A stretch of DNA of 7,692 nucleotides from a virus (IMGVR_UViG_2579778773_000006), one strand, 5' to 3'. Counted from the first letter of the stretch, positions 1-7,392 are shown. Notes: a model not told the origin generated them from the letters alone. Translations and numbers: made by a program.

Positions 1-816
1 ATGAGCACTTGCATATATTGTGGTCAGGAAGGGAAAATGACTAGAGAACATATACTCCCGTCTTTCATCTATGAATATCAATATAGTACATCATCTGGGA
101 AAACTATAGGATGGCAAGAAAAATCAAAAAAAATGATAAGTGGTGAGGCTAAAATAAAAGATGTTTGTTTTCATTGTAATAACGTAGTTCTATGTAATTT
201 AGATGGTTATGTCAAAAATATGCTAGAGCGCTCTGGTTTCTTTACAGAGTGTTTTTTAAAAGAAAAAGTTAATATCGATTATAATTATAGCTTGCTTTCT
301 CGCTGGCTACTTAAAGTTGCATTTAATTCATCTAGGGCTAGTGAGAAGAAATTGTCTTTTTTTGATAAATACAAAGATGTTATTTTGGGGTTGAGTTCTG
401 ACTTTTCAGACTTTGCAATTTCGGCTGGGTTGTTTAAACCATTAAAATTGACACCATCGGAAATGCTAAAATATGGCCATAACCTCAAAGCGCATCCTTC
501 GGGATATGCGAATCCTTTCTTTGGTCGAATTTCATGGGGCGAATTCGAATCATCCGAATGCGCGGTGAAACAGATTGTAATTGGTGCCGCAATTTTTCAT
601 ATTCTAGCTTTTAAAGGCGATTTGCATAGAAATCGAAAGAAAGCTTTAGTTAAGGAATATTTAGAAACTTGCAAAGGAATGACTCTCATTAGGAAAAATA
701 AATCTAAAGTAGATGTAATGCAAACCCCCATAACCTTTCTTGACTCAATGAAGCATCATATGCAACGCCCAGAGGTTGAACCATACTTGAGAGAAATATC
801 CCAAAATATCAATTAA
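1..816 (+). CDS. Cargo protein of unknown function with N-terminal HNH-like Cys/His (zinc-ribbon nuclease-type) motif; candidate anti-phage defence effector or free-standing HNH endonuclease
   Basis: Uninterrupted 271-codon ORF from an ATG at window position 1 to TAA at 814-816. N-terminal motif reads C4-x2-C7 ... E16-H17-I-L-P20 ... C56-F-H-C59-N-N ... L-C65-N, resembling the CxxC / (D/E)H-x2-P / N / CxxC layout of HNH nucleases. The remaining ~200 aa carry no motif I can name. Strongly AT-rich and Lys/Asn/Ile/Tyr/Phe-rich codon usage, unlike the phage genes downstream. The ORF touches the window edge, so the true start and any upstream partner cannot be confirmed. Confidence 0.65.
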   Translation: MSTCIYCGQEGKMTREHILPSFIYEYQYSTSSGKTIGWQEKSKKMISGEAKIKDVCFHCNNVVLCNLDGYVKNMLERSGFFTECFLKEKVNIDYNYSLLSRWLLKVAFNSSRASEKKLSFFDKYKDVILGLSSDFSDFAISAGLFKPLKLTPSEMLKYGHNLKAHPSGYANPFFGRISWGEFESSECAVKQIVIGAAIFHILAFKGDLHRNRKKALVKEYLETCKGMTLIRKNKSKVDVMQTPITFLDSMKHHMQRPEVEPYLREISQNIN

Positions 817-964
817 TTTTTGCTCACGCATTTTGATAATAGGAGCTATAGGATGTTTGTGCTTCATTCAAGGTCCGCTCCTCGCTCAAAGCAGACTGTC
901 AGATTTGACAGGGTTTTGGTTACGTAATTTGTCAGTTGGAAACTGAGTGAGTACAAATCAAGGC

Positions 965-993
965 AGGCGGGCTGATTGCCCGCCTTTTCTTTA
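965..993 (+). terminator. Rho-independent (intrinsic) terminator downstream of the cargo gene
   Basis: Perfect 8-bp GC-rich stem AGGCGGGC (965-972) / GCCCGCCT (978-985) with 5-nt loop TGATT, followed directly by the T-rich tract TTTTCTTTAT (985-994). Confidence 0.6.
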
Positions 994-1007
994 TCTGTTG
1001 TTTCATC

Positions 1008-1062
1008 CACTGACCAGTCAGGTCAAATAGCGTCTCATGCACTGCCCAACAGACAATAGTTG
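1008..1062 (+). promoter_or_regulatory. Candidate late promoter region (PF-like) for the FI-FII-E-T-U-D operon, containing a dyad-symmetry element
   Basis: Overlapping inverted repeats CTGAC(1010-1014)/GTCAG(1017-1021) and TGACC(1011-1015)/GGTCA(1021-1025) lie about 65-80 nt upstream of the FI ATG, where P2 late promoters carry an activator-binding dyad. No perfect TGT-N12-ACA match and no convincing -10/-35 pair were found, so exact elements are not assigned. Confidence 0.3.
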
Positions 1063-1088
1063 CACCCATTAACCACGGAGTTAAACGG

Positions 1089-2279
1089 ATGAGTGACTAT
1101 CATCACGGCGTGCAGGTGCTGGAGATTAACGACGGCACCCGCGTCATTTCCACCGTATCCACTGCCATTGTCGGCATGGTCTGCACGGCCAGCGATGCGG
1201 ATGCGGAAACCTTCCCCCTCAATAAACCGGTGCTGATTACCAATGTGCAGAGCGCAATTGCAAAGGCTGGTAAAAAAGGCACGCTGGCGGCATCGTTGCA
1301 GGCCATCGCCGACCAGTCAAAACCGGTCACCGTTGTCGTGCGTGTGGAAGACGGCACCGGCGACGACGAGGAAACGAAACTCGCGCAGACCGTTTCCAAT
1401 ATCATCGGCACCACCGACGAAAACGGTCAGTACACCGGACTGAAAGCCCTGATGGGGGCGGAGTCGGTTACCGGTGTTAAACCGCGTATTCTCGGTGTGC
1501 CGGGACTGGACACCAAAGAGGTGGCGGTTGCACTGGCATCAGTCTGTCAGAAGCTGCGCGCTTTCGGGTATATCAGCGCATGGGGCTGTAAAACCATTTC
1601 CGAGGTGAAAGCCTACCGCCAGAATTTCAGCCAGCGTGAGCTGATGGTCATCTGGCCGGATTTCCTCGCATGGGATACGGTCGCCAGTACCACCGCCACC
1701 GCGTATGCCACCGCCCGTGCGCTGGGCCTGCGCGCTAAAATCGACCAGGAGCAGGGCTGGCATAAAACGCTGTCCAATGTCGGGGTGAACGGTGTTACCG
1801 GCATCAGCGCATCCGTCTTCTGGGATTTGCAGGAGTCCGGCACCGATGCTGACCTGCTTAACGAGTCAGGCGTCACTACGCTGATTCGCCGCGACGGTTT
1901 CCGCTTCTGGGGTAACCGTACCTGCTCCGATGACCCGCTGTTCCTCTTTGAAAACTACACCCGCACCGCGCAGGTGCTGGCCGACTCGATGGCTGAGGCG
2001 CACATGTGGGCGGTGGACAAGCCCATCACTGCAACGCTGATTCGCGACATCGTTGACGGCATCAATGCCAAATTCCGTGAGCTGAAAACAAACGGCTATA
2101 TCGTGGATGCGACCTGCTGGTTCAGCGAAGAATCCAACGATGCGGAAACCCTCAAGGCCGGAAAACTGTATATCGACTATGACTATACCCCGGTGCCTCC
2201 TCTTGAAAACCTGACCCTGCGCCAGCGTATTACCGATAAATACCTGGCAAATCTGGTCACCTCGGTTAACAGCAATTAA
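1089..2279 (+). CDS. FI: Contractile tail sheath protein (P2 gpFI family)
   Basis: 396-aa ORF; the translation (MSDYHHGVQVLEINDGTRVISTV...YLANLVTSVNSN) is recognisable as P2 FI tail sheath, and the length equals P2 gpFI. GGAG Shine-Dalgarno at 1077-1080, 8 nt before the ATG. First gene of the conserved FI-FII-E-T-U-D order. Confidence 0.95.
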   Translation: MSDYHHGVQVLEINDGTRVISTVSTAIVGMVCTASDADAETFPLNKPVLITNVQSAIAKAGKKGTLAASLQAIADQSKPVTVVVRVEDGTGDDEETKLAQTVSNIIGTTDENGQYTGLKALMGAESVTGVKPRILGVPGLDTKEVAVALASVCQKLRAFGYISAWGCKTISEVKAYRQNFSQRELMVIWPDFLAWDTVASTTATAYATARALGLRAKIDQEQGWHKTLSNVGVNGVTGISASVFWDLQESGTDADLLNESGVTTLIRRDGFRFWGNRTCSDDPLFLFENYTRTAQVLADSMAEAHMWAVDKPITATLIRDIVDGINAKFRELKTNGYIVDATCWFSEESNDAETLKAGKLYIDYDYTPVPPLENLTLRQRITDKYLANLVTSVNSN

Positions 2280-3295: not shown

Positions 3296-5735
3296 CAATG
3301 TAAAATTACAGGTATTGCTCAGGGCTGTTGACCAGGCATCCCGCCCGTTTAAATCCATCCGCACAGCGAGTAAGTCGCTGTCGGGGGATATCCGGGAAAC
3401 ACAAAAATCACTGCGCGAGCTGAACGGTCACGCATCCCGTATTGAGGGATTCCGCAAGACCAGTGCACAGCTCGCCGTGACTGGTCATGCACTTGAAAAG
3501 GCTCGGCAGGAAGCCGAAGCCCTTGCCACACAGTTTAAAAACACCGAACGTCCGACCCGTGCTCAGGCGAAAGTGCTGGAATCCGCAAAGCGTGCGGCGG
3601 AGGACTTACAGGCGAAATATAACCGCCTGACGGATTCCGTTAAACGCCAGCAGCGGGAACTGGCCGCTGTGGGAATTAATACCCGCAATCTTGCACATGA
3701 TGAGCAGGGGCTGAAAAACCGTATCAGTGAAACCACCGCACAGCTTAATCGTCAGCGCGACGCACTGGCGCGTGTCAGTGCGCAACAGGCAAAACTTAAC
3801 GCAGTAAAACAGCGTTATCAGGCCGGAAAGGAACTGGCCGGAAATATGGCCTCAGTGGGCGCTGCCGGTGTGGGGATTGCGGCGGCGGGAACGATGGCCG
3901 GAGTTAAGCTGCTGATGCCCGGTTATGAGTTTGCGCAGAAAAACTCAGAATTGCAGGCCGTGCTAGGAGTGGCAAAAGACTCCGCCGAAATGACCGCACT
4001 CCGCAAGCAGGCGCGCCAGCTCGGCGACAATACCGCCGCCTCAGCGGATGATGCGGCCAGTGCACAGATAATCATCGCGAAAGCGGGTGGGGATGTTGAT
4101 GCCATTCAGGCGGCAACACCGGTCACGCTGAATATGGCGCTGGCGAACCGCCGCACGATGGAAGAAAACGCCGCCCTGCTGATGGGGATGAAATCCGCCT
4201 TTCAGCTTTCAAACGATAAGGTCGCTCATATCGGGGATGTTCTCTCCATGACGATGAACAAAACCGCCGCCGATTTTGACGGCATGAGCGATGCGCTGAC
4301 CTATGCCGCACCTGTGGCAAAAAATGCCGGTGTCAGCATTGAAGAAACCGCCGCAATGGTCGGGGCGCTGCATGATGCAAAAATCACAGGCTCAATGGCG
4401 GGGACGGGAAGCCGTGCCGTGTTAAGCCGCCTGCAGGCACCGACGGGAAAAGCATGGGATGCACTCAAAGAGCTTGGCGTGAAAACCTCAGACAGCAAGG
4501 GAAACACCCGGCCAATATTTACCATTCTGAAAGAAATGCAGGCCAGTTTTGAGAAAAACCGGCTCGGTACTGCCCAGCAGGCTGAATACATGAAAACCAT
4601 TTTCGGGGAGGAGGCCAGCTCAGCCGCCGCTGTGCTGATGACTGCCGCCTCAACCGGAAAGCTGGACAAACTGACCGCTGCGTTTAAAGCCTCAGACGGG
4701 AAGACCGCCGAGCTGGTAAATATCATGCAGGACAACCTCGGCGGTGACTTTAAGGAGTTTCAGTCCGCTTATGAGGCGGTGGGGACTGACCTGTTTGACC
4801 AGCAGGAAGGCGCGCTGCGTAAGCTCACGCAGACGGCCACAAAGTATGTGTTAAAACTCGACGGCTGGATACAGAAAAACAAATCACTGGCGTCAACCAT
4901 TGGCCTCATTGCCGGTGGCGCGCTGGCGCTTACTGGCATCATCGGTGCAATTGGTCTTGTTGCCTGGCCGGTTATCACCGGCATCAATGCCATCATCGCG
5001 GCAGCAGGCGCAATGGGGGCAATCTTCACGACGGTTGGCAGTGCTGTTATGACGGCCATCGGGGCGATTAGCTGGCCGGTTGTGGCCGTGGTGGCCGCCA
5101 TTGTCGCCGGGGCGTTGCTTATCCGTAAATACTGGGAGCCTGTCAGCGCATTCTTTGGCGGTGTGGTTGAAGGGCTGAAAGCGGCATTTGCGCCGGTGGG
5201 GGAACTGTTCACGCCACTGAAGCCGGTGTTTGACTGGCTGGGCGAAAAGTTACAGGCCGCGTGGCAGTGGTTTAAAAACCTGATTGCCCCGGTCAAAGCC
5301 ACCCAGGACACCCTGAACCGTTGCCGTGACACGGGCGTCATGTTCGGGCAGGCACTGGCTGACGCGCTGATGCTGCCGCTTAATGCGTTCAACAAACTGC
5401 GCAGCGGCATTGACTGGGTACTGGAAAAGCTCGGGGTCATCAACAAAGAGTCAGACACACTTGACCAGACCGCCGCCAGAACTCATGCCGCCACATATGG
5501 CACCGGTGGTTATATTCCGGCGACCAGCTCTTATGCAGGCTATCAGGCTTATCAGCCGGTTACGGCACCGGCTGGCCGCTCTTATGTAGACCAGAGTAAA
5601 AACGAATATCACATTAACCTGACGGGTGGTTCTGCGCCGGGAACACAGCTTGACCGCCAGTTACAGGATGCGCTCGAAAAATACGAGCGGGATAAACGTG
5701 CGCGCGCCCGTGCCAGCATGATGCATGACGGTTAA
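3288..5735 (+). CDS. T: Tail tape measure protein (P2 gpT family)
   Basis: 815-aa ORF, equal in length to P2 gpT. The N-terminal region is charged and coiled-coil-like (Q/R/A/L/K-rich). The C-terminal part has Gly/Ala/Ile-rich hydrophobic segments (e.g. LIAGGALALTGIIGAIGLVAWPVITGINAIIAAAGAMGAIF) typical of tape measure proteins. The start overlaps the E' terminus by 8 nt. Confidence 0.93.
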   Translation: MSNNVKLQVLLRAVDQASRPFKSIRTASKSLSGDIRETQKSLRELNGHASRIEGFRKTSAQLAVTGHALEKARQEAEALATQFKNTERPTRAQAKVLESAKRAAEDLQAKYNRLTDSVKRQQRELAAVGINTRNLAHDEQGLKNRISETTAQLNRQRDALARVSAQQAKLNAVKQRYQAGKELAGNMASVGAAGVGIAAAGTMAGVKLLMPGYEFAQKNSELQAVLGVAKDSAEMTALRKQARQLGDNTAASADDAASAQIIIAKAGGDVDAIQAATPVTLNMALANRRTMEENAALLMGMKSAFQLSNDKVAHIGDVLSMTMNKTAADFDGMSDALTYAAPVAKNAGVSIEETAAMVGALHDAKITGSMAGTGSRAVLSRLQAPTGKAWDALKELGVKTSDSKGNTRPIFTILKEMQASFEKNRLGTAQQAEYMKTIFGEEASSAAAVLMTAASTGKLDKLTAAFKASDGKTAELVNIMQDNLGGDFKEFQSAYEAVGTDLFDQQEGALRKLTQTATKYVLKLDGWIQKNKSLASTIGLIAGGALALTGIIGAIGLVAWPVITGINAIIAAAGAMGAIFTTVGSAVMTAIGAISWPVVAVVAAIVAGALLIRKYWEPVSAFFGGVVEGLKAAFAPVGELFTPLKPVFDWLGEKLQAAWQWFKNLIAPVKATQDTLNRCRDTGVMFGQALADALMLPLNAFNKLRSGIDWVLEKLGVINKESDTLDQTAARTHAATYGTGGYIPATSSYAGYQAYQPVTAPAGRSYVDQSKNEYHINLTGGSAPGTQLDRQLQDALEKYERDKRARARASMMHDG

Positions 5736-6229: not shown

Positions 6230-7392
6230 TGCTGGATGCACTGACATTTGATGCAGGCAGTACGCTGACGCCGGATTACATGCTGATGCTCGACAGCAGG
6301 GATATTACCGGCAATATCAGCGACCGTCTGATGAGCATGACCCTGACGGATAACCGGGGCTTTGAGGCTGACCAGCTTGATATTGAACTGAACGATGCCG
6401 ACGGGCAGGTCGGACTGCCGGTTCGTGGCGCTGTCCTGACGGTGTATATCGGCTGGAAAGGTTTTGCCCTGGTATGCAAAGGGAAATTCACCGTTGATGA
6501 GGTTGAACACAGGGGCGCGCCGGATGTGGTCACTATCCGCGCCCGGAGTGCAGATTTTCGCGGGACGCTCAATTCCCGCCGTGAAGGCTCCTGGCATGAC
6601 ATCACGCTCGGTGCGATTGTTGAGGCGATAGCCTCCCGTAACAGGCTGGAAGCCAGTGTTGCTCCGTCACTGGCCGGAATAAAAATTCCACACATCGACC
6701 AGTCGCAGGAGTCCGATGCGAAATTCCTGACCCGCCTTGCTGAACGCAACGGCGGTGAGGTGTCGGTAAAAATGGGAAAACTGTTGTTTCTCAAGGCGGG
6801 GCAGGGGGTGACGGCCAGCGGTAAAAAAATCCCGCAGATTACCATCACCCGCAGCGATGGCGACCGACATCATTTTGCGATTGCTGACCGTGGAGCCTAC
6901 ACCGGCGTAACGGCAAAGTGGTTACACACCAAAGACCCGAAGCCACAAAAGCAGAAGGTAAAACTGAAACGCAAAAAGAAAGAGAAACACCTGCGCGCAC
7001 TGGAGCACCCGAAAGCGAAACCGGTCACGCAGAAGAAAGCACCAAAAGTACCGGAAGCGCGCGAAGGTGAATACATGGCCGGTGAGGATGACAATGTTTT
7101 TGCCCTGACCACGGTATATGCCACGAAAGCGCAGGCCATGCGCGCCGCTCAGGCGAAGTGGGATAAACTGCAACGGGGCGTTGCGGAGTTCTCCATCAGC
7201 CTGGCTACCGGTCGGGCAGATATTTACACGGAAACACCGGTTAAGGTGTCAGGCTTTAAGCGCGTCATAGACGAGCAGGACTGGACCATCACTAAGGTGA
7301 CACATTTTCTGAATAATAGCGGCTTCACGACGTCCTTAGAGCTTGAGGTCAGGCTTTCTGATGTGGAGTACGAAACAGAAGATGATGAGTGA
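6229..7392 (+). CDS. D: Tail/baseplate protein gpD (late control gene D family)
   Basis: 387-aa ORF, equal in length to P2 gpD. The start ATG overlaps the U stop (TAATG at 6227-6231), suggesting translational coupling. Last structural gene before ogr, as in P2. Confidence 0.9.
   Translation: MLDALTFDAGSTLTPDYMLMLDSRDITGNISDRLMSMTLTDNRGFEADQLDIELNDADGQVGLPVRGAVLTVYIGWKGFALVCKGKFTVDEVEHRGAPDVVTIRARSADFRGTLNSRREGSWHDITLGAIVEAIASRNRLEASVAPSLAGIKIPHIDQSQESDAKFLTRLAERNGGEVSVKMGKLLFLKAGQGVTASGKKIPQITITRSDGDRHHFAIADRGAYTGVTAKWLHTKDPKPQKQKVKLKRKKKEKHLRALEHPKAKPVTQKKAPKVPEAREGEYMAGEDDNVFALTTVYATKAQAMRAAQAKWDKLQRGVAEFSISLATGRADIYTETPVKVSGFKRVIDEQDWTITKVTHFLNNSGFTTSLELEVRLSDVEYETEDDE

Follow-up and report, generated by a model that had tools for sequence, protein, structure and literature searches.

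The window analysed here, a 7,692-nt stretch of viral DNA, opens with a gene for a 271-amino-acid (aa) protein (positions 1–816, plus strand) that unrelated mobile elements exchange as a single-gene, low-G+C cassette. The existence of the gene is confirmed, and its sequence makes the product a probable DNA-cutting enzyme of an unstudied family. On balance, we consider that the protein probably acts as a stand-alone, single-protein nuclease, most likely one that the prophage expresses for defence against phages (or mobile elements). A defence nuclease is favoured over a homing endonuclease or a component with an obligate partner because the gene moves alone, has no conserved neighbour, and has no homologue in phage records.

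The ORF is complete in the ORF list and in its genomic counterpart. Window 1–1088 is 100% identical to the genomic copy in E. coli CE0011b (locus L001, in which window position 1 is 12001), where an in-frame TAA lies 12 nt 5′ of the ATG and an AAAGGA Shine-Dalgarno sequence lies 5 nt before it. Therefore, the ORF is not a piece of a larger gene, which disposes of the fragment of a larger known gene that the first-pass annotation had allowed for. The RefSeq/PGAP products (WP_029396804.1, WP_063406870.1, and WP_000196387.1) are shorter, with 259 aa and a start at window 37, and this start drops the invariant C4xxC7 of the HNH metal site; the plasmid copy WP_181365381.1 is annotated with the full 271-aa start.

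The surroundings of the gene bear out its earlier description as HNH-type cargo in the P2 Z/fun slot, directly upstream of FI. Homology to the P2 backbone, shared by 68 phage records and 1,012 of 5,426 complete E. coli genomes, starts at window 869–878, and FI, the P2 tail sheath gene and the conserved right flank of the hotspot, occupies window 1089–2279 on the plus strand (ORF list; named “phage tail sheath protein” by RefSeq in L001). By contrast, the 271-aa ORF itself occurs in only 4 of the 5,426 complete genomes. The G+C content is 0.30–0.39 over the ORF versus 0.55–0.61 over the tail genes. A terminator scan found an intrinsic terminator-like stem-loop followed by a T-run at window 965–985 (plus strand; L001 12965–12985), in a segment conserved in P2-like phages; this stem-loop is part of the P2 backbone, closing the upstream transcription unit ahead of the FI promoter region. 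The remaining window is the P2 late region with FI, FII, E/E′, T, U, D, and ogr, within which window 6750–7200 shows a strong AT skew (0.45–0.47) that corresponds to a Lys/Glu-rich stretch of the gpD-like late-control protein (KQKVKLKRKKKEKHLRALEHPKAKPVTQKKAPK). The FI protein of the window differs from that of CE0011b (L001 13089–14279) at more than 12 residues (for example, QKLRAFGY versus QELNAFGY) while window 1–1088 is 100% identical; therefore, the cargo is present in at least 2 P2-like backbones.

The N-terminal part of the protein (window 1–240, plus strand) contains a ββα-metal HNH core with a four-Cys site (C4, C7, C56, and C59), as indicated by HNH_5 matches, conservation, and the structural model. 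Comparison of 40 homologues (20–38% identity) revealed that C4, C7, E16, H17, D54, V55, C56, C59, N60, L64, D68, K105, and N109 are invariant, and that R101, W102, R112, P172, R176, and F199 are nearly invariant. Thus, the Cys/His cluster read from the sequence at first pass is real as far as C4, C7, E16, H17, C56, C59, and N60 are concerned, but H58 (“CFHC”) and C65 (“LC”), which had been counted in, are not conserved among the homologues. The resemblance of this cluster to an HNH nuclease core also held up. The Pfam family HNH_5 (PF14279) is matched by 31 of the 40 diverse homologues (best E value 1.2e-6), PF14279 is precomputed on homologues P0011 and P0025, and other homologues are named “HNH endonuclease” at source; the window protein itself matches at aa 4–22 with an E value of 0.014 and 15.8 bits, below the Pfam gathering cutoff of 27.5 bits.

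The AlphaFold2 model of the 271-aa protein (pLDDT 84.7, pTM 0.85) has the corresponding strand-strand-helix arrangement, that is, a strand (residues 13–17) ending in H17, a second strand (residues 51–56), and a helix (residues 57–78) beginning at C59–N60. The insertion between the 2 strands (residues 21–50) consists of a helix plus a disordered loop, and pLDDT drops below 50 for residues 35–46. Sequence and model together show the N-terminal 80 aa as a predicted HNH/His-Me finger core, clamped by a predicted four-Cys metal site, with E16–H17 and N60 as putative catalytic residues. The invariance of the catalytic residues argues for an active nuclease. An analogy with T4 endonuclease VII was dropped, since hhalign of the family profile against a provisional sequence of that enzyme was not significant.

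The rest of the protein is a C-terminal α/β domain (approximately residues 85–255, about 190 aa; window 253–765, plus strand) of no named family. The first-pass annotation could name no motif in these roughly 200 aa. It was right as far as domain libraries go, with no Pfam, NCBIfam, or PADLOC match for the rest of the protein beyond the HNH core, but the domain does carry a strongly conserved motif, R101-W-L-L-K105...N109-S-x-R112 (RWLLKxxxNSxR, residues 101–112; nt 301–336, plus strand). Although the structure prediction is confident, fold searches with the model found no relative of the domain among solved structures or viral protein structures. The only PHROGs matches were weak and to families without an assigned function, neither the protein nor the 40-sequence profile retrieved anything meaningful from PDB sequences, and no known modified-base reader fold was detected fused to the nuclease core.

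The gene is a member of a broad, uncharacterised family that combines HNH_5 with a novel domain. At E ≤ 1e-3, a full profile search retrieved about 1,338 cluster representatives, of which 299 passed E ≤ 1e-30; a word-indexed search retrieved only 30 clusters, all from Gammaproteobacteria. The genome scan located family members in Proteobacteria, Firmicutes, Cyanobacteria, Planctomycetes, and other phyla. The members found by the profile search come in 2 sizes, of about 265 aa and about 430 aa. The longer ones (P0028–P0030, P0046, P0065, and others; about 420–440 aa) continue beyond the shared region with a further domain of about 160 aa, which has no Pfam match, and are a second architecture of the family.

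Alignment by blastn of the four chromosomal contexts of the gene revealed a common piece of 1,123 bp (L001 11774–12896, equivalent to window −226 to 896; 98.8%–99.9% identity), made up of 227 bp upstream, the ORF, and 80 bp downstream. The contexts are (i) the P2-like prophage of CE0011b, where the unit lies between FI and the tail-fibre assembly gene, the latter followed by an IS2; (ii) a non-phage chromosomal island with site-specific integrases, which is 99.9% identical over 4.9 kb; (iii) an e14-like prophage (EC11), where the unit lies downstream of pinE and a DUF4145 gene; and (iv) the bio end of a lambdoid prophage. Across the P2-like, e14-like, and lambdoid prophages the unit is 98.8%–99.3% identical. 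In addition, a 100%-identical protein is encoded on a conjugative IncFIB NDM-4 plasmid, within the same integrase island. The CE0011b prophage is probably defective: its tail-fibre gene is broken into 3 pseudogene fragments (L001 4279–7903), with the IS2 between the tail-fibre assembly gene and the cargo block. In the e14-like prophage, the DUF4145 protein (L003 7971–8675) is encoded between pinE and the HNH unit and has no PADLOC match.

The first-pass annotation had suggested that an upstream partner might be cut off by the window edge. Four extra low-G+C cargo genes do lie there in the P2 prophage (L001 8030–11463), the chromosomal integrase island (L002 4030–7463), and the IncFIB NDM-4 plasmid (L095 3168–6463), and the P2 and island copies share a 4,867-bp block that includes them. 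Their products have 309 aa (with an HExxH motif), 156 aa, 182 aa (with a hydrophobic N-terminal stretch), and 211 aa (with a Transgly, or peptidoglycan transglycosylase-like, domain). Yet 2 other prophages carry the HNH unit without these genes, a 537-bp gap separates the unit from the nearest of them, and an all-against-all comparison of genes within four genes of the family members at about 84 loci found no recurrent neighbour family beyond closely related species. The upstream cargo genes were therefore rejected as partners, and an obligate upstream partner is not supported. A PADLOC and Pfam scan of the four genes, the DUF4145 gene, and the island genes gave no PADLOC match and only the Transgly and DUF4145 domains.

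More distant homologues are found in several kinds of place. The Dickeya homologue is a solitary gene beside the phn operon, the Cedecea homologue is in a small islet, the Salmonella homologue neighbours a SymE toxin gene within an ICE, and the Aeromonas homologue is in an island with MksE, Fic, and Xre-family genes. A V. parahaemolyticus homologue (51% identical) is an integron cassette between 127-nt attC-like repeats; the window gene, by contrast, is not flanked by attC but bounded by a different, 24-bp site.

The right-hand copy of this site (GTCCGCTCCTCGCTCAAAGCAGAC; window 873–896, plus strand) lies where the mobile unit ends and the P2 backbone begins, as located by the junction alignments of the four contexts, by pattern search, and by the P2 homology from 869–878. 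The left-hand copy, a direct copy, lies outside the window at −225 to −202 (L001 11775–11798). The consensus of the site, present as a direct copy at each end of the HNH unit, is GTCyGCTyyTCGCTCAnAGCrGAC, and in GTCYGCTYYTCGCTCANAGCRGAC two imperfect inverted arms of 9 bp can be read on either side of a near-constant centre. The junction alignments revealed that the outer halves of the copies differ according to the recipient element and that the inner halves travel with the gene; therefore, the exchange points lie in the constant centre TCGCTCA. No clear covariation was seen between stem positions 4 and 21, which leaves a folded-hairpin reading unsupported, and Rfam gave no match at the boundary sites. 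The tail-fibre-assembly gene is not a general left neighbour of the site, being found at only 5 of 120 loci. In P2-EC53, where repeats are annotated around the Z-region ORF, the “right inverted repeat” contains a degenerate version of the site. A literature search found no paper quoting the site sequence and none naming the protein accession in its main text; work by Nilsson and colleagues from 2004 probably discusses these repeats and may already describe the 24-bp site.

A scan of viral contigs showed that the site is not peculiar to the Z/fun slot or to the HNH gene: at least 120 contigs carry it, only 21 of them with a P2 FI homologue. Between direct copies of the site lie 28 intervals of 0.4–3.4 kb, of which 26 have an ORF of at least 60 aa, mostly as one main ORF, and the G+C content of these intervals is mostly under the locus median. 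A scan of the main ORFs of 24 of the intervals other than the HNH one yielded defence matches to Shedu SduA (8e-166), DRT RT_UG17 (5e-155), and a ThsB-like TIR protein (2e-128), with further matches to pVip, PDC-S31, PDC-S66, and HEPN_LA2681. Non-defence cassettes also occur among the site-bounded intervals, namely, GNAT acetyltransferases, a permease, a methyltransferase, and a CdiI immunity protein. In one occupied/empty pair, a cassette has been gained or lost precisely at the site: in viral contig L128, sites at 1497–1520 and 3468–3491 surround a 1,971-bp cassette, and in E. coli TW14425 (L217) the same flanks enclose a single site (4497–4520).

The pattern fits cassette exchange at a short conserved site, by a site-specific recombinase or by short-homology recombination. 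A bolder reading, which we hold as a doubtful though real possibility, takes GTCYGCTYYTCGCTCANAGCRGAC to be the core site of a recombinase-driven, integron-like system that would shuttle single-gene defence cassettes among unrelated enterobacterial prophages (P2-like, e14-like, and lambdoid), ICE-like elements, and integrase islands; the HNH protein would then be one such cassette, a new immune nuclease whose unmatched C-terminal fold would be a new invader sensor.

Several lines of evidence bear on a role in defence. The P2 Z/fun (G–FI) slot is a documented defence hotspot (iLund4u preprint, which cites Vassallo and Rousset on the P2 hotspot). The gene or its homologues occupy recognised hotspots or variable regions, namely, P2 Z/fun, the post-pin position of an e14-like prophage, one end of a lambdoid prophage, an ICE, an island on a plasmid, and an integron cassette. 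Among 150 neighbours (within 3 genes, 26 diverse loci), strong matches to AbiU, Shedu SduA, AriA, MADS, and PtuA were found, as a raw listing, and many neighbours of the homologues are housekeeping genes. The gene is already flagged as a predicted defence gene by one published predictor: the DefensePredictor entry is the exact window protein in its truncated RefSeq form, WP_029396804.1, listed in Table S10 as a “Predicted novel defense gene” with a mean log-odds of 6.33 against a strict cutoff of 4 (DefensePredictor, Science 2026). The accession is absent from Tables S6–S8 of the same paper, which cover the units selected or cloned for screening and the plaque assays; the entry is a prediction only. 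PADLOC-DB 2.0.0 (2023 models) gave no match for the window protein and a single weak match among the 40 homologues (PDC-M01B, E value 0.0027).

In the mechanism that we propose for a defence nuclease, the C-terminal domain would supply target recognition or a phage-triggered switch, so that the nuclease would spare host DNA and cut invader DNA. It would act either by direct, restriction-like cleavage or through abortive infection, and the 227 bp upstream of the ORF would carry the gene's own promoter.

Two other readings would put the nuclease activity at the service of the gene's own spread. As a free-standing HNH homing endonuclease, the second possibility offered by the first-pass annotation, it would cleave related phages without a copy of the gene at a cognate site and spread by repair-mediated copying. 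The HNH motif, the low G+C content, the position between conserved phage genes, and the rarity of the ORF in complete E. coli genomes would all suit such an enzyme. However, a tblastn search of 50,697 phage records, virulent or temperate, found no homologue, the structure search found no viral protein with the same fold, and the homologues are in chromosomal integron cassettes, ICEs, plasmids, and islets in many phyla. Moreover, four backbones unrelated to one another carry the unit at a common 24-bp site, which flanks other, unrelated cargo as well; this is indirect evidence that its movement needs no nuclease of its own, and with mobility explained by the flanking sites we regard homing as very improbable. 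No more credible is that the HNH enzyme mobilises its own cassette by nicking or cutting the 24-bp boundary sites. A nuclease gene between 2 copies of a short conserved site with dyad symmetry invites this reading, but the HNH protein is the main ORF in only 1 of the 26 site-bounded intervals of the viral contigs, the others being unrelated, and most homologues in other phyla were not found with 24-bp sites, the Vibrio homologue using attC repeats instead.

The remaining alternatives keep the gene as cargo and change its task. A nuclease for competition between, or maintenance of, mobile elements (plasmid or ICE exclusion, or an addiction-type toxin), rather than for phage defence, would agree with the copy on the conjugative IncFIB plasmid, with the ICE copy beside the SymE toxin gene, and with integron arrays that also hold toxin-antitoxin and Tae4/Tai4 cassettes. 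We consider this unlikely, given that no conserved adjacent antitoxin or immunity gene was found at about 84 loci, that the ORF opens with the CxxC of the HNH core and has no room for an N-terminal secretion or delivery domain, and that the placement in prophage hotspots and the defence-rich cohort of cassettes point to phages as the target. Similarly small is the chance we give to an accessory protein with no part in defence, for example a zinc-finger regulator or a factor for DNA repair or processing, hitch-hiking in variable regions. Ordinary genes of metabolism or transport make up about half of the sampled neighbours, hotspots also hold non-defence cargo, and no known defence model was matched; against this, the invariant catalytic residues speak for an active nuclease, the patchy distribution, tied to mobile elements and near-identical across unrelated ones, is typical of conflict genes, and the log-odds of the independent machine-learning model favour defence. 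A stand-alone defence nuclease thus remains our preferred reading.

If this reading is confirmed, a widespread single-protein nuclease family would be added to the known defence repertoire, and a C-terminal sensor or recognition domain without structural precedent would make it a compact system for studying how a single nuclease discriminates between invader DNA and that of the host. In practical terms the gain is modest, since the hotspot has already been described, defence systems commonly use HNH effectors, and the gene is flagged by a published model. The boundary site may matter more, as a concrete mechanism candidate for the rapid swapping of defence cargo, which recent P2/P4 studies describe without a mechanism.

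Phage HNH homing endonucleases (I-HmuI and the T4 Mob proteins; PMC5714182) have the His-Me finger catalytic motif in common with the window family, which differs from them in its absence from phage records, its other accessory domain, and its mobility by flanking sites. The single-gene systems of integron cassettes (Darracq et al. 2024), including the HNH-like Sirona and Nemetona, share the streamlined, nuclease-like, single-gene format. By their descriptions, Sirona and Nemetona are relatives of NinG and of type II restriction enzymes, whereas the window family matches HNH_5; our searches found no homologue in V. cholerae N16961. The validated P2 hotspot cargo (Z/fun, old, and tin; Rousset 2022 and Vassallo 2022, as cited in the preprint) shares the G–FI slot and the small, low-G+C format of a single or few genes. 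The window protein is unrelated to these validated systems, with no PADLOC match and a role that is predicted only.

EcoKMcrA, the type IV enzyme of e14, resembles the HNH gene in being a prophage-borne single polypeptide of similar size (mcrA is 834 bp, about 277 aa), and in K-12 e14 mcrA is annotated as a type IV methyl-directed restriction enzyme. McrA is an HNH enzyme with a Cys-rich metal site, and its HNH domain is C-terminal. The domain order is thus reversed in the window protein, in which the HNH domain is N-terminal, and no similarity was detected between the non-catalytic domains of the two proteins. A site search found the 24-bp boundary site to be absent at the mcrA locus of K-12 e14. 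The EC11 e14-like prophage carries the HNH gene in the post-pinE slot, which is the mcrA slot of K-12 e14, with the DUF4145 gene alone in between. A McrA-like, modification-dependent sub-model would be attractive given the shared slot, but the searches found no known reader fold.
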